Assembly: GCA_963674825.1 (NCBI GenBank)
Contig: OY771587.1
Location: forward strand, 2,208,001-2,272,000
Direction of reading: 5' to 3'
Length of the DNA: 64,000 nt
From: Candidatus Cloacimonadales bacterium
GTDB lineage: Bacteria > Cloacimonadota > Cloacimonadia > Cloacimonadales > JAIOQZ01
Under the pieces are notes generated by a model. The model was not told the origin of the DNA. It worked only from the letters and a program-made list of their open reading frames with translations, and did no database searches. Numbering within the stretch: position 1 is the stretch's first letter; every line of letters begins with the position of its first letter. The translations under genes were made by a program, and so were the position numbers. Shown here piece after piece: positions 49,780 to 61,259 of the stretch.

Positions 49780-50985
49780 TTAATTCCTGTGTCTGCGCGG
49801 AACCGTGAACCGCTCTGAATCAATTGTGACGCCCAGCATACCCATGGTTACGGGGGCATCGCCGATAACATCCGACATGATGCCGAACGATACATCAGCG
49901 ATTGATGACTTGATGGTGAAGCCACCGGTTATAAATGCCTGGTCGTTGTCTTCAATAAGACCGTAGTCATAGCCCTCAGCTGGGTAGTACGGGTTCTGGT
50001 TTCCGCCGAATCCGCCATCCGGGTAGTCATATTCGCCGGTGAATACGCCGGGAACATACATGAAGCCGCAACGGAGGGTGGAGTACATATAATCGTACTC
50101 GAAACCGAGTTTCATGCGGGTGCGATCGTCGAAATCGTCGGCCTGCTCGCTGCAACGTTCGTATTCGATATCGGCGGCAGCGCGAAATTCTTTGTAGCGA
50201 AAGAGCACTCCCGCTGTGAGGACGGACGGGAAGGTCACGTCGTATTTCTCATCGTTATCGAGATCGAAGGTCTTGGTCGTCTTCGGCATGTAGCTTGCGC
50301 CGATTGTGACAGACTTGAAGTCGTACTGGAACCCGGGCTGGAAGCGGAATGCTGTCTCCTGGACATCGGTTCGATTGTTCTGGTAATAGTACCGGTAGTC
50401 ATCCAACGTGTAGATGCAGTAGTGGACGTTAAGACCGAGCCGAAGATTATTGAACGCATACGATGTTGCCAGTGATAACCTCGATTGCACATATGATGGC
50501 TCGAGTGTGTAAAAAGAGTCGTCGCTCATCTCACGGGTGAAGTCCATGTACTCCAGAGATTGATCCATGGAGTAGCTGAGCCCGACTGAGAGACCATTTA
50601 CAGGCTGGAATCCGATGCCGACATAGGCGAATGGATTGTTTGACTGGTAACTTTGCAAAGAATTGGTCTCGTAGATGCTTGTGGCATCGTGCTGGCGGAA
50701 CCGGGTATGATTCATCTCTTCCATATCGGTTTTATGGATGAATTCAAAGTGGAAAGTCGTCAGTTCGGTGGTGAATCCCGCCGGATTAATCATGGCGTTT
50801 TCCACGCCTTCCTGGAAAGCTGCGCCAGTGTTGCCGCGTCCCATGGCGTTGATGTTCAGGTAGTTACGAGAGTACTGGTCGTAAATGCACTGCATGAATT
50901 CAGGTGCAGTGTATTGGTAGCGGTCCAGGGCGACCACTTGCAGGAACATGCTCAGAACAAGAAGAATAAGCATGCTGCGTTTCAT
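49780..50985 (-). CDS. Putative outer-membrane beta-barrel (FadL/PorV-like)
   Basis: Signal peptide; NAMGRGNTG...NPAG N-terminal motif; aromatic-rich alternating strands. Confidence 0.65.
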   Translation of the reverse strand: MKRSMLILLVLSMFLQVVALDRYQYTAPEFMQCIYDQYSRNYLNINAMGRGNTGAAFQEGVENAMINPAGFTTELTTFHFEFIHKTDMEEMNHTRFRQHDATSIYETNSLQSYQSNNPFAYVGIGFQPVNGLSVGLSYSMDQSLEYMDFTREMSDDSFYTLEPSYVQSRLSLATSYAFNNLRLGLNVHYCIYTLDDYRYYYQNNRTDVQETAFRFQPGFQYDFKSVTIGASYMPKTTKTFDLDNDEKYDVTFPSVLTAGVLFRYKEFRAAADIEYERCSEQADDFDDRTRMKLGFEYDYMYSTLRCGFMYVPGVFTGEYDYPDGGFGGNQNPYYPAEGYDYGLIEDNDQAFITGGFTIKSSIADVSFGIMSDVIGDAPVTMGMLGVTIDSERFTVPRRHRN

Positions 50986-50996
50986 AAAATACCCCT

Positions 50997-52250
50997 TCAT
51001 GTACGGTAAATGGTTTGTTTTCTGTCAGGTCCAACCGAGATGACGGTGAACCGGATACCGATCACCTCTTCCAATTTCGCTATATATTTCTTTGTGTTTT
51101 CTGGTAACTGGTCGTACTCGCGAATGGTGGAGATATCCTCACGCCAGCCATCCATCTCGATGTAGATGGGCTCGGCGTGTTCGAGGTCTTCCGCGTTGAA
51201 CGGCATTTCGCGCGTGCTGATCCCTTCAATGCAGTAGCCGATGCATATCTTGATTTTATCGAATCCGCTGAGAACGTCCAGCAGGGTGATCGCACCGTCC
51301 GTGAGGCCGTTGATCATGGCGGTGAAGCGAGCAGCAACGGCGTCGAACCAGCCGCAGCGTCTTGGTCGGCCTGTTGAAGCGCCGTATTCGTGGCCCTGCT
51401 CGCGGATGCGGTTTCCTGTCTCGTTATTGAGTTCGGTGGGGAAGGGACCTTCGCCAACGCGCGTCGTATAGGCTTTGTAAACGCCAAGGATGCGGTCGAT
51501 TTTGTTTGGTGCGAATCCGCTTCCTGCCGATATACCGCCGGCGGAAGTGTACGATGATGTCACGAACGGGTAGGTTCCGAATCCGACATCCAGAAGCGTC
51601 CCTTGTGCGCCTTCGAACAGCAATTCGCGACCTTCGCTGTGGAAACGATCCAGCAGGTACGGCACCTGTGCAAAATATGGTTTGAGCCTTTCGCCGGCAG
51701 CGAGTAGCTCAGTGATTACGTTATCGATGTCTTGTGTATCTTTCTTGTGGAATGCATAAATACGTTCGAGTCTGGCTCGGAGTTGGACTGGATTTGTGAG
51801 ATCGATGATCTGCGGAGCAATACGCGATGCGCGATCGGCGTAGGTTGGCCCGATACCGCGTCGGGTCGTGCCGATCTTTGTCTGACCAACAGAGTCCTCT
51901 CTGCTGGAATCGAGTTCTTTATGCAGAGGAAGAACCAGGGTTGCGCGAGGATCGATGAAAAAGCGTCCTTCAAACGACAGACCGCGGCTGCGCAGTTCGT
52001 CCATCTCCTGAAGAAGCATGATCGGGTCGATCACGGTTCCTGCTCCCAGAAAACAATTTTTCTCGGGATAGAGCATTCCGGATGGAACCAGATGAAACAC
52101 AAACTTTTCGCCATCCTTGATGATGGTGTGACCTGCGTTGCTGCCTCCCTGAAAACGGATAATGGCATCCGCCTTTACTGCCAGGGCATCGACGATTTTG
52201 GCTTTGCCTTCATCGCCCCAAAGGCATCCCAGTACTGCTGTTACGGACAT
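50997..52250 (-). CDS. purA: Adenylosuccinate synthetase
   Basis: WGDEGKAK, QGGSNAGHT, GTTRRGIGP.Y, EGAQG, TRVGEGPFPTE, TGRPRRCGWFD. Confidence 0.98.
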   Translation of the reverse strand: MSVTAVLGCLWGDEGKAKIVDALAVKADAIIRFQGGSNAGHTIIKDGEKFVFHLVPSGMLYPEKNCFLGAGTVIDPIMLLQEMDELRSRGLSFEGRFFIDPRATLVLPLHKELDSSREDSVGQTKIGTTRRGIGPTYADRASRIAPQIIDLTNPVQLRARLERIYAFHKKDTQDIDNVITELLAAGERLKPYFAQVPYLLDRFHSEGRELLFEGAQGTLLDVGFGTYPFVTSSYTSAGGISAGSGFAPNKIDRILGVYKAYTTRVGEGPFPTELNNETGNRIREQGHEYGASTGRPRRCGWFDAVAARFTAMINGLTDGAITLLDVLSGFDKIKICIGYCIEGISTREMPFNAEDLEHAEPIYIEMDGWREDISTIREYDQLPENTKKYIAKLEEVIGIRFTVISVGPDRKQTIYRT

Positions 52251-52331: not shown

Positions 52332-53402
52332 CTATGGCATTGCGATCTTCTGAATGAAGCCAGTCAATCCGAATAATGGATGACCGACATGCCCATACAG
52401 GATGATCGATTCACCGTCGCGGACCGCGTCAGGTATCATCAGCACTTTGGGATCGAAGGAACTCAACATCTCGATCTTGCCGTCTTTGGTTATTTTCTGG
52501 ATGGCCACCAGCGTTGTGAGGTCAGGTTTTTCTTTTGATTTCTGTACGCCCAGTATCAGGTTATCAAGGAACTTCACCACGTATCCTTCGTAGGGGATTT
52601 CCATACCGGATTCGAGCATAAACAGGCGACTGTCTGATGGAACCGGTCCCGCGTCAGTTTTTGTGTATAGCGCTACCAGGCCGGTATTGCCGGTTGTGAA
52701 GTCTTTAACGCCAAGATTTGCATCAAATCCATCGACTGTCTTGATAGGCGTGATGGCGTGATTTTCCATATCCAGTTCGCTTATGGTAAGGATGCCGTCA
52801 TTTTTTGCACCTGCAAGGAGCATTCCTGAATCCTGCTTGATTCGATCGATCTCCTGTGGTATCAACCACGGACTTATCGCAATTTCATCTTCCGTAAAGG
52901 AATAGAGAAACGTGGAATCGTGATCGTAAACTACCAGGATTCCGCTATTGCCGGTAGAGAACAGGTCCATGCGAATAATGCGATCTGCGTCCATGATTGC
53001 TTCCGCATGCAACGGGTTTCCATTCTGATCGATATGCACGAGGTCGTAATGATAATATTCCGGATGCACGTATGTCTGCTGTAGCAGCCAGTAGCCATGA
53101 TTTGACTCAACGCACTTCTGGATTACTGCTAAAGAATCCAGATGGATCGTTGTGCGCCCGATTTCATTCAAATCCTGGTCGTACTTCAGTATCATATGTT
53201 TGGTTATTGGCTTGAGCACTTCCAGGGTACTCGCGAGAATTTCATAGGAGCCATCGCTTTGCGGAAAGACGCCGTGAATCATTGTGTTGGCATCTGGATT
53301 GACGATCTTGTATGGTGCATCTTTGAGTGCTGGAAATCCACACGAAATCAGAATCAGAAAAGTGATCGAGAGCATGAAAAGTATGCGAGTGTGCGTTTTC
53401 AT
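52332..53402 (-). CDS. Hypothetical lipoprotein (possible beta-propeller)
   Basis: Lipobox LISC; AAGGAG-like RBS; no recognised family. Confidence 0.7.
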   Translation of the reverse strand: MKTHTRILFMLSITFLILISCGFPALKDAPYKIVNPDANTMIHGVFPQSDGSYEILASTLEVLKPITKHMILKYDQDLNEIGRTTIHLDSLAVIQKCVESNHGYWLLQQTYVHPEYYHYDLVHIDQNGNPLHAEAIMDADRIIRMDLFSTGNSGILVVYDHDSTFLYSFTEDEIAISPWLIPQEIDRIKQDSGMLLAGAKNDGILTISELDMENHAITPIKTVDGFDANLGVKDFTTGNTGLVALYTKTDAGPVPSDSRLFMLESGMEIPYEGYVVKFLDNLILGVQKSKEKPDLTTLVAIQKITKDGKIEMLSSFDPKVLMIPDAVRDGESIILYGHVGHPLFGLTGFIQKIAMP

Positions 53403-53467
53403 AAGGAACTCCTTGGTCAGGGTCGCTGATCTACTGCGTCTTTGGTAAATTTATTGATTATCCGTGA

Positions 53468-54568
53468 TCACAGAAGCGTGTTGATCACCTCATTGGAAAC
53501 GAAATAGCCCTTTGGCATAAGGCGTAGATGACCATCGATAATGCAGATATAGCCGTCGCGGATCAGCCGGAAGATTTCGGTTCCCTTCTCTTTCAGCAGG
53601 TCATGATGAAACCGCTCGTTATACTCATCGAGGTTGAGCCCGACGGTCTTACGCAGACTGAGCAGGATTATCTCTTTGCGGAGCTCTTCTTCGTATAGTT
53701 GGATCGCGTTGGGCATGATGTAGTTGTGTTCAATGTTCTCGATGTAAGCCTGGATATCCTCGCGGTTGGTGTAGCGCTTGCTGTCGATGAAGCCGGATGC
53801 GCCGGCACCGAGTCCAAGGTAATCGACCCCGTTCCAGTACGAGGTGTTATGGCGGCTGTGAAAGCCATCTTTGGCAAAGTTGGAGATCTCGTATTGCCCG
53901 TAATCGGAGAGACCTTTTCGTAGCGTGTCGTAAAAGTCCGTGACCAGATCGTCGTCCGGCAGGGTAGCGCCGAACATGGGTGCGTCGGGTTCCAGGCTGA
54001 GGCAGTAGGTGGAAATATGCTCTGGCTTCATCTCGCGAACGCGCTCGAGATTGTAAGCGATGTCATGCATCGTCTGGCCGGGGAGGCCGTACATCAGGTC
54101 GATGGAGATATTGTCGAAACCAGCTTGCCGTAGCTCATGGATCGTGTTGCGTGCCTGTTGTGCGTCATGGAGTCGGCCAAGGAGCATAAGCTCGCGGTCG
54201 ATGAACGATTGCACGCCGAGGCTGACACGGTTGATCAGTCTGCGGTAATCAGCGAGTGGTGCGGCGATGACAGCCGGATTCATTTCGATGGTTATCTCGG
54301 TATCGTCTGGGTAATCGAAGCAGGCGAGGATGGATTCGATATCCTGCGGTGTCAGCAGCGATGGCGTACCGCCCCCGAAGTAGATGGTTGAAGGCTGGAT
54401 ATCGTATTGCTCGTGGAAGAGATGGATTTCTCGCCGGAGTGCGCTGAGATAGCGTTTTCTATGAGATACAAAGCTATTATCGTCGATTGGCAGTGAGAAG
54501 AAGGAGCAATAGCCGCACTTCCTCTTGCAGAAAGGGATGTGGATATAGACGTGCCGGATCGGCGTCAT
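53468..54568 (-). CDS. hemW: Radical SAM heme chaperone HemW (HemN-like)
   Basis: YIHIPFCKRKCGYCSF, YFGGGTPS, RVSLGVQSF, YEISNFA, HNTSYW. Confidence 0.88.
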   Translation of the reverse strand: MTPIRHVYIHIPFCKRKCGYCSFFSLPIDDNSFVSHRKRYLSALRREIHLFHEQYDIQPSTIYFGGGTPSLLTPQDIESILACFDYPDDTEITIEMNPAVIAAPLADYRRLINRVSLGVQSFIDRELMLLGRLHDAQQARNTIHELRQAGFDNISIDLMYGLPGQTMHDIAYNLERVREMKPEHISTYCLSLEPDAPMFGATLPDDDLVTDFYDTLRKGLSDYGQYEISNFAKDGFHSRHNTSYWNGVDYLGLGAGASGFIDSKRYTNREDIQAYIENIEHNYIMPNAIQLYEEELRKEIILLSLRKTVGLNLDEYNERFHHDLLKEKGTEIFRLIRDGYICIIDGHLRLMPKGYFVSNEVINTLL

Positions 54569-55401
54569 CGGATCAGATTGAAGAAACGCTCCCAGCGGAT
54601 TCGTGAGGGAGGTTTCTTGCCCTGCTGCATCAACCTCATGGTGTAGGCGTATTCGTTCATGTTCTTGATCGGTTCTTCGCCAACGGAGAAGAAGATCAGC
54701 AGCGGTGTTCCGGTGATGCGTCTGCGATCAAGGAAGCCCCAGTAGCGGCTGTCGAGACTGCGATCGCGGTTGTCCCCCAATACGAAGTAGCTTCCTTCCG
54801 GTACAATAATCGGTCCGAAGTTGTCGCGCGTTCCCATCTCCTGTCCTTCGTACTCGCCGAAGTTGACATCAGCACCCGGGTAGCTCCCGCGGCTCCAAAC
54901 GATCTGATCTTCGATCAATTCGCCCTGGCGATTTCTGCCCATCCAATTCTGCGGATCGACGTGCTGCTCGTAATCGCGGATCATCACTTCGCCGTTAACA
55001 TAGACGCGCTGGTTGACGATCCTGATGCTGTCGCCCGGCATGCCGATAACCCGTTTCACGACGTTCTTGGGCGCGTGATAGGTGAAGAACATCTTGTCTC
55101 TGTCCCAGAAGATCGGGCCCAGCAATCGTTTGTAGTTCTCCGGCGGTTGCGGCGTGACCGGATCGGCTGGATACCGGAACGTGACGATGTCTTCCCATTC
55201 GGGGTCTTCAAACAGGAAGCTGATCTTGTCCGCCACCAGGTAGTCGCCGATAAGCATGGTCGATTCCATGGACGAAGAGGGAATCATGAAGTTCTGGAAG
55301 GTGTAGTTTCGGATCACCATCGCGACAACAAACGCGAACAGCAACGCCTCTACGTAATCCTGAACGATATTCTTTTTGCGCTGAATTTTCTTCTTTCTCA
55401 T
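54565..55401 (-). CDS. lepB: Signal peptidase I
   Basis: IPSSSME (Ser), VKRVIGMPGD (Lys), GDNRDRSLDSRYWG. Confidence 0.95.
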   Translation of the reverse strand: MRKKKIQRKKNIVQDYVEALLFAFVVAMVIRNYTFQNFMIPSSSMESTMLIGDYLVADKISFLFEDPEWEDIVTFRYPADPVTPQPPENYKRLLGPIFWDRDKMFFTYHAPKNVVKRVIGMPGDSIRIVNQRVYVNGEVMIRDYEQHVDPQNWMGRNRQGELIEDQIVWSRGSYPGADVNFGEYEGQEMGTRDNFGPIIVPEGSYFVLGDNRDRSLDSRYWGFLDRRRITGTPLLIFFSVGEEPIKNMNEYAYTMRLMQQGKKPPSRIRWERFFNLIR

Positions 55402-55562
55402 ATTGATACCTGTAATCCAAACGCATTTCCAGATGAGTCGTGTCAAGAAAAACGTGGTGGAGGCTGTTATATTGAGGAGTTGATCTTTTCAGAAAGAAAT
55501 CATTTGACAGTAATTGAGCGACAAAGCATTCATTTAATAAATAAGTTAGGTGTCGAGAAAAG

Positions 55563-56395
55563 ATGCAATACTATTGTTTGAATAACACACATTGCGATTA
55601 TGAAGGCTTCAGGCAGATAATTGAGTTGTATCATTACTGTCGTAAATTCGAATTTACTCAAATTCCAATCCAATTGAATTCATGGTTCAGCGCTAACCTA
55701 TGCTCATGCCTTGGTGGAATTCTTGATCTAACTGATAATAATTTTCTTTTTCAGTTTCAAGAGCCGAAAACACAAGAAATATTTCAACGTAATGGTTTTT
55801 ATCTCATTTCTCTTATCCGAGAATGAGAGATGGGTATCAGACAACAATTGAATACTTAAAATTAAAGCCAGAGCATGGAAGGTATTTTACGGAGGTATTG
55901 GTAACGAAATTATTGAGCCATCCAGAATACCCTGATTTGGCAAGTGAAGCGAAAAAGAAAATTTACGAGTCGATATTAGAGATTTTTGATAACGCTAAGC
56001 ATCATAGTGAAACTATGCAAATTTATACTTGTGGGCAATATTTTCCCCAAAAGAATTCTATTAAATATACAATTACGGATACAGGGATTGGAATTCCGGA
56101 ACGGATTTTCAAAACCTATGGTAGAAAACTCGATTCGAGACGGGCTATTGAATGGGCAATAGAATATGCTAACTCAACGAAGCAAAATGCATCAGGGGGA
56201 ATTGGACTATATGACTTAAAAGATTTCATTGCCAAAAATCAAGGACGGATTCATATTGTCAGTGCTGATGGATTTTATGAATTGGATCCTTCGGGTGAAA
56301 GGTTTTTGCTATTTGATAAGCCTTTCCCGGGAACGATTGTTAACATGGAATTTTGCACTAAGAGTGCGCCTGTAAGTGCAGAATATGAAGTTTAA
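55563..56395 (+). pseudogene. STAS-like + HATPase (anti-sigma kinase-like) gene split by a 1-nt frameshift into ORFs 55563..55826 and 55823..56395
   Basis: EIFDNAKHHS (N box), ITDTGIGI (G1), STK...GGIGL (G2), FPGT; adding one T to the T5 run at 55796-55800 joins the frames as ...QRNGFLSHFSYPRMRDGYQTT... Confidence 0.7.
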
Positions 56396-56406
56396 GGGGA
56401 GAAGTA

Positions 56407-56754
56407 ATGGAGCAGTTCAAGTTAGATATCTATAATATTGTGGGGAGCGAATATTGCATTGAATCGGGAGATGGTGAGCACGTCTTCAGCGTGATAAATA
56501 GAGCGCTTGATAGTGGAAAGCAAGTTCTGCTTTCTTTTAATAACATTGATATTGTCACTACAGCTTTTCTAAATCCTGCGATAGGTAGGCTCCTTGAAAA
56601 GCACGCAAAAAGTGAGATTTATAGTAGGATCATTTTTTCGGATATCTCTGAGTCTGACATGATAAAAGTAGAACGTGTTATCGAAACAGCGGAATTGTAT
56701 TACAAGGATCCTGATAGAATGCAAAGATCTGTTGATAGCGTTTATGAGGATTAA
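56407..56754 (+). CDS. STAS-like domain protein (DUF4325-like)
   Basis: DGEHVF..I..AL...KQVLLSFNNIDIVTTAFLNPAIGRL. Confidence 0.8.
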   Translation: MEQFKLDIYNIVGSEYCIESGDGEHVFSVINRALDSGKQVLLSFNNIDIVTTAFLNPAIGRLLEKHAKSEIYSRIIFSDISESDMIKVERVIETAELYYKDPDRMQRSVDSVYED

Positions 56755-56757
56755 TGT

Positions 56758-57300
56758 ATGAATCGGCGATACTGCAAAGGAGACATCGCTTCTTTTTCAG
56801 ATCAGACCGTATTCTTCGATGCAAATGTATTGCTGTATTTATTCTATCCTGCATATTCCAAGAATCATTGGGTACCGAAATATTCAAGTATTTTTGGCGC
56901 ATTGATGAGAGACAAAATAAATATCGTTGTGGATTTCATGGTTCTTTCTGAATTTGTAAATCGCATATTAAGGGAGTCTTACAAAGATAGATGCAGGAAA
57001 AAAAAGGTGTCTCAACAAAAGTATTCATACAAAAAATTCAGGAATTCAAGGGTATGCATAAAATTGGAAAACAGTATATATGATTGGATTAGAAATGACA
57101 TTTTAAAGGTGTGCTCAATTTATTCATATTCAATATCCGAATCGGACGTACAGTCAATACTTACAGTGAGTGAGCTCGATTTCCAAGACAAACTCATTGA
57201 AAAAGTATGCAGGGATAACGATTTCATTCTCTGCACAAACGACTCAGATTTTAAAAATTCGGATATTGATATTCTGAGCGCACATCCTGACTTAAGCTGA
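56758..57300 (+). CDS. PIN-domain ribonuclease-like protein
   Basis: FFDANVL, VLSEFVN, LDFQD, TNDSDF acidic active-site pattern. Confidence 0.85.
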   Translation: MNRRYCKGDIASFSDQTVFFDANVLLYLFYPAYSKNHWVPKYSSIFGALMRDKINIVVDFMVLSEFVNRILRESYKDRCRKKKVSQQKYSYKKFRNSRVCIKLENSIYDWIRNDILKVCSIYSYSISESDVQSILTVSELDFQDKLIEKVCRDNDFILCTNDSDFKNSDIDILSAHPDLS

Positions 57301-57428
57301 TCTTCTTCCCAATAATATCGTCAATTTAACAAGCTCCTCGCTCCCATCTCTTTTTCCTTGACGGAAATTGTATCGAAACCAGATTTTTATGGTACGATAC
57401 GAAAATGTATGGTACACAGGAAGGTTCG

Positions 57429-58106
57429 ATGATATATTCAAAATTACTTGAACGCTATGATAATATCGTGCATGGATTTGGCACGGTCAGAGATTCATTG
57501 CTGGACATACAGAACGCCTGCAAGCCGCTTTTTGGCGGAGCGAATCCAGCGCTGATTCAGGCGGAACAGGTGCACGATGCCAAAGTGGCGATTGTGCACA
57601 ACAACATTTACACAGGTAGCGCCCCCATCCGTAACATGGACGGGCTGATCACTCGCGATATGGATACGGTGGTCATCGTTCGCAGCGCGGACTGCATCCC
57701 GATCCTGATCTACGACCCGGTGAAGAAGGTTTGCGGAGCTATACATGCCGGACGCAGAAGTATCACCAAGGGCATCGTCGAGAACGCTGTGCAGATGTTC
57801 AAGGGACGCTTCAGCAGCCAGGTGGAAAACCTGCTGGTGGTGCTCGGTCCCGCAATCTGCAAGGATCACTACCAGGTGGACCAGAAGACACAGGATATCT
57901 TCGTCTCGGTAACGGGCATCGCGCAGGAGAAAGGCGTGATCGACCTCACCGGTGCGGTTGTCCAGAAGCTGGAAAAGCTCGGGCTGCCGAAGAAGAATCT
58001 GGACGTGATTGATATCTGTACATTTGAGCACGAAGATTTCCATTCCTACCGTCAGAAGAAGACGGAACAAAGACAATACTCCTACATCGGATTGAAGCAT
58101 GACTGA
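57429..58106 (+). CDS. pgeF: YfiH/PgeF peptidoglycan editing factor (laccase-domain)
   Basis: HGF, QVH, DGLIT, ADCIPI, IHAGR, GPAI, CT, FHSYR. Confidence 0.9.
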   Translation: MIYSKLLERYDNIVHGFGTVRDSLLDIQNACKPLFGGANPALIQAEQVHDAKVAIVHNNIYTGSAPIRNMDGLITRDMDTVVIVRSADCIPILIYDPVKKVCGAIHAGRRSITKGIVENAVQMFKGRFSSQVENLLVVLGPAICKDHYQVDQKTQDIFVSVTGIAQEKGVIDLTGAVVQKLEKLGLPKKNLDVIDICTFEHEDFHSYRQKKTEQRQYSYIGLKHD

Positions 58107-59415
58107 TATTCTTACCGATCCCAATGGACTCTTGACACTGCAAATACGTGATGACGGCGCATGGCTTACCATGCTCAACGCGAATGAGATTATCAATGAA
58201 CAGGCGATCTTGGAGCTTATCGAAGGCGCAGGAATCGTGGAAGGTTTTGAGCGTGCGCGCGACTACATGGATGTTCACTACCTGGAGCGCAACTTCGGCG
58301 AACCGTTTCCCATCGCGCTCAATCAGATGCCGGCTCAACCACAGATCGAATTTACACCGCTGTTCGACGAGAATAGATGTATCGATCCGGATCATTACAG
58401 CTTCAACGAGCTGGGAAATCTTGTTACAACAGAACCGGGCAAGCCACTGGCGCACCTCTTCGTGACGCGCTCAGGCAGTCCCGGGAAAGACATCTATGGC
58501 GACGCTATCTCGCCCTCCATGGACGATCAGGAAGCGTTGGAATCGAAGCTGGGTACGAATGTCCGATTCGATGAGGATATGAGTCAGATTATTGCGGAAT
58601 CAGCCGGATATCCATATATCGATGCTGAAGGCCGTGTCTGCGTAAAAAGCGAGTTCGTGGTGGAAGGTGATATCGACCTGAACCAGGATAATTTCAAGCT
58701 CTTTGCCAGTCTGATAGTCAATGGTAATATTCAGGACAAGATCAACATCGAACTTGCCGGAAATCTGGAAGTAAATGGCGATATTGTCGATTCTTCGATC
58801 AAGGCAGAGGGCGATATCAAGGTTTACGGAGATATCTTGAATTGCCAGGAGGCAGGCATCTTCTCGCGCGGCAATATCGAGTTCGAGAACGCGGAAAACG
58901 CGTTCTTGATGGCGGCCGGAAAGATTCGCTTTACCGAGCATGCCAATTTCTGTAAGATGATCTGCGAACGCGCGATTCAGGGCGATGCCGAGAAGAGCTC
59001 GGTTGTTGGGGGCATGGTTCAATGTGGTGGCGATGTGGAAGTTGCGGTTCTTGGCAGTACAGGTGCGATTGGAACGGAAGTTGAGATTACCATCAGTCCC
59101 TACAACAAAGAGCGGATGCTGCATCTAACCAAGAAACTGAGCGATTTACGCCGGAATGAAACAAACAACGAAGCTGAAATCGCGTTCATTGAAGCTACGC
59201 TGGAAGATCTGGAAAATCGGCTTGAAGAAGAGATCAACCGCACGCTTCTTTCCGACGAAACAAAACCCAAACATATCGTTGCATATAAAAAGGTATTTCC
59301 TGGAACATATGTCCGGATTCTGAAGAAATCCCGAACCATCACCGAAGAGTATGATAAGATATCTTTCTCGCTGATCGATGGTGATTTGGTGATGGAATCG
59401 TATCTGGTGGACTGA
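58099..59415 (+). CDS. FapA (DUF342) family protein
   Basis: G.PGKDIYG, beta-helix repeats (V.GDI, VNGNI, AEGDIKV.G), IVGG...LGS..AIGT, coiled coil, VFPGT.V.I. Confidence 0.8.
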   Translation: MTDILTDPNGLLTLQIRDDGAWLTMLNANEIINEQAILELIEGAGIVEGFERARDYMDVHYLERNFGEPFPIALNQMPAQPQIEFTPLFDENRCIDPDHYSFNELGNLVTTEPGKPLAHLFVTRSGSPGKDIYGDAISPSMDDQEALESKLGTNVRFDEDMSQIIAESAGYPYIDAEGRVCVKSEFVVEGDIDLNQDNFKLFASLIVNGNIQDKINIELAGNLEVNGDIVDSSIKAEGDIKVYGDILNCQEAGIFSRGNIEFENAENAFLMAAGKIRFTEHANFCKMICERAIQGDAEKSSVVGGMVQCGGDVEVAVLGSTGAIGTEVEITISPYNKERMLHLTKKLSDLRRNETNNEAEIAFIEATLEDLENRLEEEINRTLLSDETKPKHIVAYKKVFPGTYVRILKKSRTITEEYDKISFSLIDGDLVMESYLVD

Positions 59416-59440
59416 CAGATAGAAACAGATTGGAGAGAGC

Positions 59441-59674
59441 ATGATTTTTATTGTACTTGGAATTCTACTGGTCGTTGGATTCCTCAGTTACAAGACCTAC
59501 CGCGCGGATAAGGAACACAATGTTTTTTACTACTACACAGCTGTTGCTGTACTGATCTTTGTTCTGGGCGGTAAATTCGTGACCGGAACGAACATGACGC
59601 ATTTGATTCTGGCCGTGAGCTTCCTTGTTGCGCACATGGTGGGTGTTTTTGCCCGCACATGGGATCAGTGGTGA
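59441..59674 (+). CDS. Small hydrophobic membrane protein
   Basis: GGAG RBS; about 3 TM segments. Confidence 0.6.
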   Translation: MIFIVLGILLVVGFLSYKTYRADKEHNVFYYYTAVAVLIFVLGGKFVTGTNMTHLILAVSFLVAHMVGVFARTWDQW

Positions 59675-59735
59675 TCCCTTCTGAAATCCCGATAGAAATC
59701 GCATTACGATACTATACAATCAGAAGGAGGAATCT

Positions 59736-61259
59736 ATGGCGATTGTCCTGAACGGAACTGGTTTAACAGTTGAGAAACTTGTCCGGATCGCACGTCACAA
59801 CGAGAAGGTGGAGCTTCATCCAGACGCGGTGGGGCGCATCAACAGATGTCGCGAGATGCTCGAGAAGAAGATACGTCAGCATGAGATCATGTATGGCGTT
59901 AACACGGGTATCGGAGAATTTTCCGAGGTGGTTCTGAGCGATGAGCAGATCAAGGATTTTCAGAAATACTTGATCTATAATCACGCAGCCGGAATCGGAG
60001 ATCCTGCTCCGATCGAGTACGTGCGCGGCGCAATGACAAGTCGTGCGAACATCCTTTCCAAAGGGCATTCAGGCTGTCGTCTGCAGATCGTTGAGACGCT
60101 TATTGCGATGCTCAACGAAGGCGTAACTCCTTATGTATGCCAGAAAGGTTCTGTGGGAGCCTGCGGTGATCTTGCACCGATGTCGCAGATTGCGCTGATG
60201 ATGATGGGTGAAGGCCATGCCTATTACAAGGGCGAACTCCTTCCCGGCAAAGAAGCGCTTGATCGCGCCGGCATTCCGATCCCCGGACTGGAAGCGCGCG
60301 ACGGGCTTGCGACAATCAATGGCTCGAATCTCCTTACCGCAATGAGTGCGATCATGCTTTATGATACGGATCGCTGGCTCCGCCAGGCTGAGATCGCATG
60401 TGCGATGTCGCTGGAAGCTTTGCTGGCAAACATGAAGCCGTATCATCCGCTTCTGCATGAAATTCGTGGATTCCAGGGCGCACAGCGTGCCGCCAAGGCA
60501 ATCCGTACGGTTCTTGAAGGCGGCGACGTCTATGAAGGCAACATCAAGATGAAGGTTCAGGACGCCTACTCGATGCGTTCCGCTCCGCAGGTTATCGGCG
60601 CTGCGCACGACCAGGTGCGCTGGGCGAAATCGCAGGTGGAAATCGAGCTCAACAATGTGGGCGACAATCCAATCTTTTTCCCGGAACACAATCTTCAGCT
60701 TTCCGGCGCAAACTTCCAGGGATCACCTGTTAGCGTACCCATGGATATGGTCGGCGCGGTTGTGACGATGGTATCGGTAATGTCCGAACGCCGTATGAAC
60801 CGGCTCAATCACCCAGCGCTCAATATCGGCCTGCCGGCGTTCCTGACCAAGGGCGCGGGTATGATGTCCGGTTTAATGTTGAGCCAATATACAGCCGATA
60901 TGCAGATCGTCGAGCAGCGCATTCTCTCCATGCCTGCCTCGATCCAGTCCATTCCCGCGGCAGCAGATCAGGAAGACTTCGTATCGATGGGGATGAACAC
61001 CGCGATCAAGAACTTCCAGATCATGGACAACGCCTACGGAATCTTGGGAATCGAATTCATGGCGGCTGCACAAGCGCTTGATTTCCGTGATCTGAAGTTG
61101 GGCAAGGGAACCGGCAAAGCGAAGGAAATCATACGCAAGTACGTCGAGTTCCTCGATATCGATCGACCGCTCTATCCCGATCACACCAAGATGAAAGAGC
61201 TGGTCAAGTCATGTGAAATCCTGGAGGCGGTCGAAGAAGTCGTCGGACCGCTCGAATAA
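59736..61259 (+). CDS. hutH: Histidine ammonia-lyase-family (MIO) lyase
   Basis: YGVNTGIG, GHSG, GSVGACGDLAP, QDAYSMR..PQ, DNP, NFQG, QEDFVSMG; ftcD in the same window. Confidence 0.8.
   Translation: MAIVLNGTGLTVEKLVRIARHNEKVELHPDAVGRINRCREMLEKKIRQHEIMYGVNTGIGEFSEVVLSDEQIKDFQKYLIYNHAAGIGDPAPIEYVRGAMTSRANILSKGHSGCRLQIVETLIAMLNEGVTPYVCQKGSVGACGDLAPMSQIALMMMGEGHAYYKGELLPGKEALDRAGIPIPGLEARDGLATINGSNLLTAMSAIMLYDTDRWLRQAEIACAMSLEALLANMKPYHPLLHEIRGFQGAQRAAKAIRTVLEGGDVYEGNIKMKVQDAYSMRSAPQVIGAAHDQVRWAKSQVEIELNNVGDNPIFFPEHNLQLSGANFQGSPVSVPMDMVGAVVTMVSVMSERRMNRLNHPALNIGLPAFLTKGAGMMSGLMLSQYTADMQIVEQRILSMPASIQSIPAAADQEDFVSMGMNTAIKNFQIMDNAYGILGIEFMAAAQALDFRDLKLGKGTGKAKEIIRKYVEFLDIDRPLYPDHTKMKELVKSCEILEAVEEVVGPLE

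Follow-up and report, generated by a model that had tools for sequence, protein, structure and literature searches.

Between two core genes of a Candidatus Cloacimonadales bacterium lies a compact, AT-rich group of open reading frames, which raises the question of what these genes encode, where they came from and whether they still work. The window analysed here, a stretch of 64,000 nucleotides in its entirety, had received an initial annotation from its letters and reading frames, which proposed a module whose kinase/STAS switch would gate a PIN RNase, possibly directed against phages. The tight packing described there is exact, with gaps of 11 and 3 nt, and Pfam identified the divergently oriented core genes on both sides as lepB (minus strand) and pgeF (plus strand). 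The operon itself (55563-57300, plus strand) comprises four open reading frames of 87, 190, 115 and 180 amino acids. The features of the locus are as follows.

54565..55401, minus strand: lepB, signal peptidase I, core gene forming the left flank (Pfam Peptidase_S26, E=9e-43)
55457..57349, plus strand: AT-rich cassette with approximate limits, flanked by genus-shared sequence upstream of lepB and of pgeF
55563..55826, plus strand: vapK 5' piece, 87 aa, consisting of about 79 residues of the N-terminal domain (STAS-like by homology) followed by 8 out-of-frame residues
55796..55800, plus strand: frameshift site, a T5 run that is one base short in comparison with intact relatives (single gap in the DNA alignment with the relatives G002 and G018)
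55823..56395, plus strand: vapK 3' piece, 190 aa, GHKL/HATPase domain (Pfam HATPase_c, E=2.2e-6)
56407..56754, plus strand: vapS, 115-aa STAS (DUF4325) antitoxin with a C-terminal extension (Pfam DUF4325, E=2.2e-12)
56758..57300, plus strand: vapC, 180-aa predicted PIN-domain RNase toxin (Pfam PIN, E=0.003, below Pfam's cut-off)
57429..58106, plus strand: pgeF/yfiH, core gene forming the right flank (Pfam Cu-oxidase_4, E=1.5e-46)

The composition of the cassette sets it apart from its surroundings. The two 60-nucleotide lines used by the initial annotation as an example, starting at 55561 and 57661, contain 21 and 37 G+C residues, respectively, as it had counted. The module as a whole has a G+C content of 35.8% (0.33-0.39 along the cassette) whereas the genome has 49.6%, and among 2239 genome tiles of the same length just 2 reach such a low value. 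Third-position G+C amounts to 0.30-0.38 in the cassette versus 0.56-0.74 in four flanking genes. As both measures lie far below those of the genome and the flanks, a foreign origin of the module is well supported, and the suggestion of horizontal acquisition stands. DNA alignments with the genomes G002, G003 and G001 place the borders, as the identity shared within the genus drops after approximately 55456 and resumes at approximately 57350. The flanking genes themselves are conserved: lepB is 88-90% identical across the genus and pgeF is present in 36 of the 41 genomes searched. No terminal repeats or target-site duplication stood out around the cassette. Promoter-like sites occur at chance level (8 versus 8.4 in shuffled sequences) and no terminator was found, while no Rfam family was detected in 53000-60000 and a search of the window ORFs against NCBIfam gave no meaningful match. 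Both cassette flanks, 55441-55452 (minus strand) and 57350-57363 (plus strand), carry a genus-conserved, outward-pointing motif made up of a T-tract and TTGAC; the two motifs, found by eye and absent from the promoter-scan output, likely serve lepB and pgeF as -35 promoter boxes. Further along, pgeF is coupled to a gene of the FapA family (flagellar assembly protein A-like, 58099-59415), an arrangement that recurs in all five family members with an examined pgeF region, and two secreted-looking proteins of 406 and 356 aa, lacking Pfam matches at E<=0.001, are encoded on the minus strand at 49780-51000 and 52332-53402.

Judged from its protein sequences and their order, the operon is a member of the VapKSC anti-phage toxin-antitoxin system (Chambers et al., EMBO J 2026, PMC13373217). 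VapKSC consists of the kinase VapK, the STAS antitoxin VapS and the PIN RNase toxin VapC, and the proposed model states that VapK senses ssDNA and phosphorylates VapS, which frees VapC (PMC13373217). The VapC protein of Escherichia is toxic and is bound and neutralised by VapS, yet rescue from VapC is lost with the phosphomimetic S48E or a C-terminal deletion of VapS; a crystal structure of VapS with VapC revealed a 2:2 complex (PDB 9Z7O; PMC13373217). The Escherichia operon provided approximately 2-log protection against one phage, Bas42, and this protection was abolished by VapC D28A, VapS S48A or VapK F54A (PMC13373217). The activity of VapK itself was not demonstrated in that study due to the insolubility of the protein, so that ssDNA activation of VapK, direct phosphorylation of VapS and the RNA target are deductions in the published work, too (PMC13373217). 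The kinase/STAS switch gating a PIN RNase that had been proposed for the window therefore corresponds to the published model, and since VapKSC has already been characterised, an outcome that the initial annotation had itself named as counting against its proposal, the novelty of the module is gone. Among the literature records listed, the term "vapKSC" is used only in the work of Chambers et al. The part of a 2017 PIN classification that concerns cluster PIN.4 couples it to DUF4325 genes and gives no function (PMC5499597); the PIN-DUF4325 link is common to that cluster and the window, and the window PIN is assigned to it via its DUF4325 neighbour only. A DUF4325 gene is also among the entries of a Francisella prophage table.

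The stand-alone STAS-like protein with its TTAF motif, already recognised in the initial annotation, is encoded by vapS. Among 177,635 PDB sequences its best and only significant match is Escherichia VapS (9Z7O_A, E=1.8e-11), which covers query residues 5-114 and reaches into the C-terminal region. Thr52, the second Thr of TTAF, lies opposite the phospho-site Ser48 of Escherichia VapS, and all eight rows of alignment A5 have either Thr or Ser at this position. A single-sequence query of viral contigs with the window STAS protein found no relative. The full acidic active site ascribed to the PIN protein could be verified as well: D21, E65, D141, D144, D162 and D164 are invariant in all 15 aligned relatives. 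A profile built from 15 sequences, including the PIN protein of Deinococcus gobiensis (A4), matched Escherichia VapC (9Z7O_C, E=5.7e-8) as its sole match below 0.1, with D21 opposite D28. The 9Z7O VapC chain was missed by the window PIN alone and by a narrower profile of 10 sequences (A1). Since only the wider profile reached it, the window copy represents a distant subfamily, to which a function is assigned despite low sequence identity. The D. gobiensis PIN protein also matches 9Z7O_C (E=1e-8). A structure prediction of the window VapC (pLDDT 94) would fit this assignment, as the top Foldseek rows are VapC/PIN proteins (E of about 0.002-0.01); 9Z7O is not listed there, and the entry is possibly absent from the library, which ends in April 2026.

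The kinase is represented by two pieces. The HATPase without a HisKA domain that had been noted is found in the 3' piece, and Pfam gave no HisKA match for the window kinase. This piece retains the N-box (Asn57) and the G-boxes DTGIG, GGIGL and FPGT, and a protein search that covered lengths of 104-333 aa yielded 29 relatives besides itself, 28 of them with 284-300 aa. The link to the characterised VapK runs via the Escherichia-type kinase of another genome of the phylum (G210; 29% identity and E=2e-24 to the intact kinase of G002) and a check by eye. Asn57 shares a column with the catalytic Asn of this Escherichia-type VapK, and Trp41 of the 5' piece aligns in the column of its Phe, which corresponds to F54 when compared by eye with Table S2 (the paper's VapK numbers F54/N160/K180-181 run 5 higher than the count by eye in that table). 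One of the two predicted ssDNA-contacting lysines of VapK is replaced by Gln in the window copy. The N-terminal domain of the kinase gave no Pfam match, the hhalign comparison with VapS remained at E=0.05 and a probability of 1%, and a single-sequence model of the intact G002 kinase reached a pLDDT of 34; the putative STAS nature of this domain rests on homology to VapK as the paper describes it (PMC13373217). When a kinase profile was compared with the PDB, the sole match was the HATPase domain of an ethylene receptor (E=9e-4).

The order vapK-vapS-vapC is shared by the window, the genomes G002, G018, G178, G208 and G210, and D. gobiensis. The latter was retrieved from 72,556 plasmids, among which the G002 kinase and the window STAS protein each match a single record, plasmid P5 of D. 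gobiensis I-0. The kinase, STAS and PIN proteins of this plasmid are encoded in the same order and match the window with E=5e-33 (31% identity to the vapK 3' piece), 2e-14 and 5e-11, respectively, and D. gobiensis I-0 is a row of Dataset EV3 of Chambers et al. An HTH regulator gene is located directly upstream of the P5 operon (L042:4465-4926) and has no counterpart at the window copy. A term search of the whole Dataset EV3 file did not return the string "Cloaci", and unnamed bins listed there could belong to the phylum. PADLOC-DB 2.0.0, a library from 2023 that predates VapKSC, contained no match better than E=0.002 for the four window ORFs and none at E<=0.001 for the three intact G002 proteins. 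Taken feature by feature, the window copy shares with VapKSC the gene order, a GHKL kinase that retains the catalytic Asn and has no N-terminal HTH, an aromatic residue at the predicted ssDNA site, homology of VapS including its C-terminal extension, a conserved Ser/Thr at the Ser48 position, homology of VapC with its PIN active site, and direct sequence similarity to both crystallised chains. It differs by Thr in place of Ser, Trp in place of Phe, the replacement of one of two lysines and a frameshifted vapK. The single intact vapK frame that is absent here is present in the G002 copy at the same site. This frameshift lowers the case for a working system, not for membership of the VapKSC family.

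Several named systems resemble parts of the cassette. The SpoIIAB/SpoIIAA and RsbW/RsbV pairs likewise employ a GHKL Ser/Thr kinase that acts on a STAS protein, but the window cassette contains no sigma factor. VapBC also has a PIN toxin held by a protein antitoxin, and VapC proteins are the top Foldseek rows for the window toxin. VapB is a DNA-binding antitoxin that is removed by proteolysis; in contrast, the window antitoxin is a STAS protein that would be released by phosphorylation, and none of the four cassette ORFs gave an HTH match, in line with the initial annotation, which had noted the lack of a DNA-binding antitoxin. CapK and CapS similarly consist of a STAS-GHKL kinase followed by its STAS substrate, and for this pair activation by ssDNA and serine phosphorylation were demonstrated biochemically (PMC13373217). 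However, CapK carries an N-terminal HTH and CapS a C-terminal wHTH, and CapS represses a downstream operon. The window cassette does not fit the CapK-CapS pair, as the 115-aa STAS protein contains DUF4325 only, the cassette gave no HTH match and a PIN toxin gene followed by pgeF lies downstream. The CapS chains (9Z71-9Z73) are absent from the PDB matches of the window STAS protein.

The HATPase of the initial annotation is thus present, but its gene is not one open frame, which had only been hinted at by a reference to a "repaired kinase". In alignments with full-length relatives of 284-300 aa, the window kinase is covered in two frames, with the switch at 55796-55799; in a tblastn comparison, the 5' piece (frame 3) is 31-41% identical to them. 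Apart from the frameshift, the operon has no visible lesion and both vapS and vapC are free of decay; neither a second vapK nor a second DUF4325 gene was found elsewhere in the genome. The three-gene homology, the preservation of gene order and of key residues, the frameshift and the failure to find a second vapK are the observations behind the reading that we favour and regard as probable: an acquired vapKSC operon with a frameshifted kinase, in which the intact VapS likely keeps the intact VapC bound and silent while the trigger is without function. As a single missing base splits vapK, the toxin of the window strain is likely locked for good in its inactive state; this presumes that the window VapS binds the window VapC and that the split kinase is dead. 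In an intact copy, the trigger would be ssDNA that arises during phage infection or DNA repair and docks on VapK between the STAS and the GHKL domain. The kinase would then phosphorylate VapS at the Ser48 equivalent, Thr52 in the window, as suggested by the S48 genetics and the CapK biochemistry. Phosphorylated VapS would leave the VapS2VapC2 complex, judging from the behaviour of the phosphomimetic in Escherichia, and the freed VapC, whose toxicity was shown in Escherichia, would cut its presumed RNA target, stop growth and abort the infection.

At E<=1e-10, vapK was detected in 10 of 232 genomes of the phylum, many of which are incomplete. The co-conservation of the three genes, left as a check by the initial annotation, was borne out, as five of the nine other phylum genomes with vapK contain complete vapK-vapS-vapC operons, in addition to D. 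gobiensis P5. Three further copies, truncated at contig ends, are consistent with this arrangement, and the remaining one has decayed (L004, G034:C269): its vapK contains an in-frame stop, and vapS and the 5' part of vapC are deleted. When genome contigs were scanned with the intact kinase of G002, this genome was the only one retrieved; the statement on co-conservation thus rests on the search of the phylum genomes. An association with defence genes, also listed there as a check, held for part of the family: three phylum copies adjoin type I R-M, AbiE/PDC-M59 or PDC-S02 genes, but the neighbours of the window copy are housekeeping genes by Pfam and do not form a defence island. Two further copies, for which few neighbours were tested, gave no convincing defence match. 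In G018 (L038:1352-9207), a type I restriction-modification operon adjoins vapK, which starts 37 nt behind hsdR, an arrangement similar to the R-M links reported in the paper. A second vapKSC subfamily within the phylum, of the Escherichia type, is represented by the copy of G210 (L062, G210:C117), which adjoins an Mrr-type PDC-S02 gene and whose VapC matches 9Z7O_C with E=2e-45.

The site between lepB and pgeF varies within the genus. G002, which belongs to the same genus, has an intact vapKSC at this site, and the sister species G003 contains an AAA_21 and RloB pair there (L036:5124-7063; PADLOC AbiLi E=1e-73, AbiLii E=4e-20). In G001, lepB and pgeF are approximately 660 kb apart, no lepB was found within about 5 kb of pgeF in G004 and G007, and an empty lepB-pgeF site was not seen in the genomes examined. 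Defence-type cargo is thus found in the slot of three of four genus genomes, and the intact operon of G002 together with the AbiL-like pair of G003 marks the gap as a variable slot, pointing to a small defence hotspot.

A comparison of the two vapKSC copies at this site revealed that the kinase has diverged most. Identity between the window and G002 is 48% for the kinase (window 55563-56395 versus L035:4497-5354), 62% for the STAS protein and 74% for the PIN protein, and the corresponding tree distances between the window's genome (G000) and G002 are 1.62, 0.58 (vapS) and 0.31 (vapC). The kinase divergence falls on both branches. Replacement of vapK was considered because its fourfold sites are saturated between the two genomes, with 6 of 41 identical compared with 31 of 59 in vapS and vapC together (Fisher p=1e-4). 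Replacement by an unrelated allele is not shown, as a tree of 20 of 34 rows, from which long-branch and near-duplicate rows had been dropped, still recovers the two kinases as weakly supported sisters (88/96, not starred). The divergence of the kinase is compatible with rapid evolution of the sensor as well as with an exchange involving a related allele.

Two other readings concern the break in vapK. The frameshift could stem from an error in sequencing or assembly, or represent a minority variant, with a fully working vapKSC in the strain; it lies in a homopolymer run, the usual place for such errors, and the operon shows no other damage. Against it, Logan contigs from two runs of one sample (X1 and X2, depth approximately 38-40), which may be the assembly's own source, span the whole region without any difference from the window, and a 301-base contig (X3, depth 7) that belongs to another sample of this study and spans 55699-55970 is identical as well, with the proviso that such contigs drop rare variants. 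Split genes are also rare in the window's assembly, where 2 of 177 orthologues were split (220 ORFs of a sister genome tested, from 400 kb); the 22 of 177 matches with an internal stop in this control may be antisense frames or over-long starts. As contigs of two samples lack an indel and split genes are rare, the break is probably real and biological, and an error is improbable. Slightly less so, and nevertheless unlikely, is an operon that works with a split kinase, in which ATGA re-initiation or ribosomal slippage at the T run would supply both halves for an assembled VapK that still responds to ssDNA. The TGA stop of the 5' piece overlaps the in-frame ATG of the 3' piece (ATGA, 55823-55826), and this overlap, together with a break near a likely domain boundary, means that both halves could be made. 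The 5' piece retains Trp41 and the 3' piece all GHKL motifs, and vapS and vapC are undecayed. The same unlikely reading extends to a reversible on/off switch at the T run within a genus-level defence slot, with a kinase that evolves several times faster than antitoxin and toxin, as would be expected if phages target the sensor. However, Met at the position of the internal ATG is not conserved in relatives, and no Shine-Dalgarno-like sequence was seen by eye before it. Any ATG-A in the shifted frame creates a TGA, and one of the nine stops in this frame is of this type, so that chance suffices to explain the overlap. Furthermore, none of the intact relatives examined within the search range is split like the window, and a split kinase would miss approximately 9 linker residues.

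Two broader readings concern the system as a whole. The vapKSC genes might serve this lineage in general DNA-damage dormancy, or be maintained selfishly as a toxin-antitoxin unit that is hard to lose, rather than protect from phages. Of the 289 published vapKSC operons, only 103 have further defence genes nearby, and the authors call the boundary between stress response and immunity fuzzy (PMC13373217); moreover, vapS and vapC persist intact after the loss of the kinase. Since one member was shown to need each of the three genes for phage protection (PMC13373217) and the same slot holds an AbiL-like system in G003, we regard such a role as very unlikely, and it is in any case compatible with the preferred assignment to VapKSC. 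A different kinase-STAS-PIN system with another signal or target that merely resembles VapKSC is hardly credible: the identity to the Escherichia proteins is low and the kinase diverged unusually fast within the genus, but the best PDB matches are the two crystallised chains of VapKSC, the order and key residues agree, and D. gobiensis from the paper's own list carries the orthologous trio.

The window copy is therefore best described as a new and probably disarmed member of the known VapKSC system; with its kinase broken, it probably does not work as written. Its description extends VapKSC to this phylum, where it was missed by the 2023 library of defence models. As a distant subfamily with Thr and Trp in place of Ser and Phe, of which G002 holds an intact copy, it could allow a test of the ssDNA-dependent phosphorylation of VapS that was blocked by the insoluble VapK of the original study. 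Losing the kinase while keeping toxin and antitoxin intact is a way of disarming the system that should be safe according to the model, and the gap between lepB and pgeF provides a small defence slot that is worth mining across the genus.
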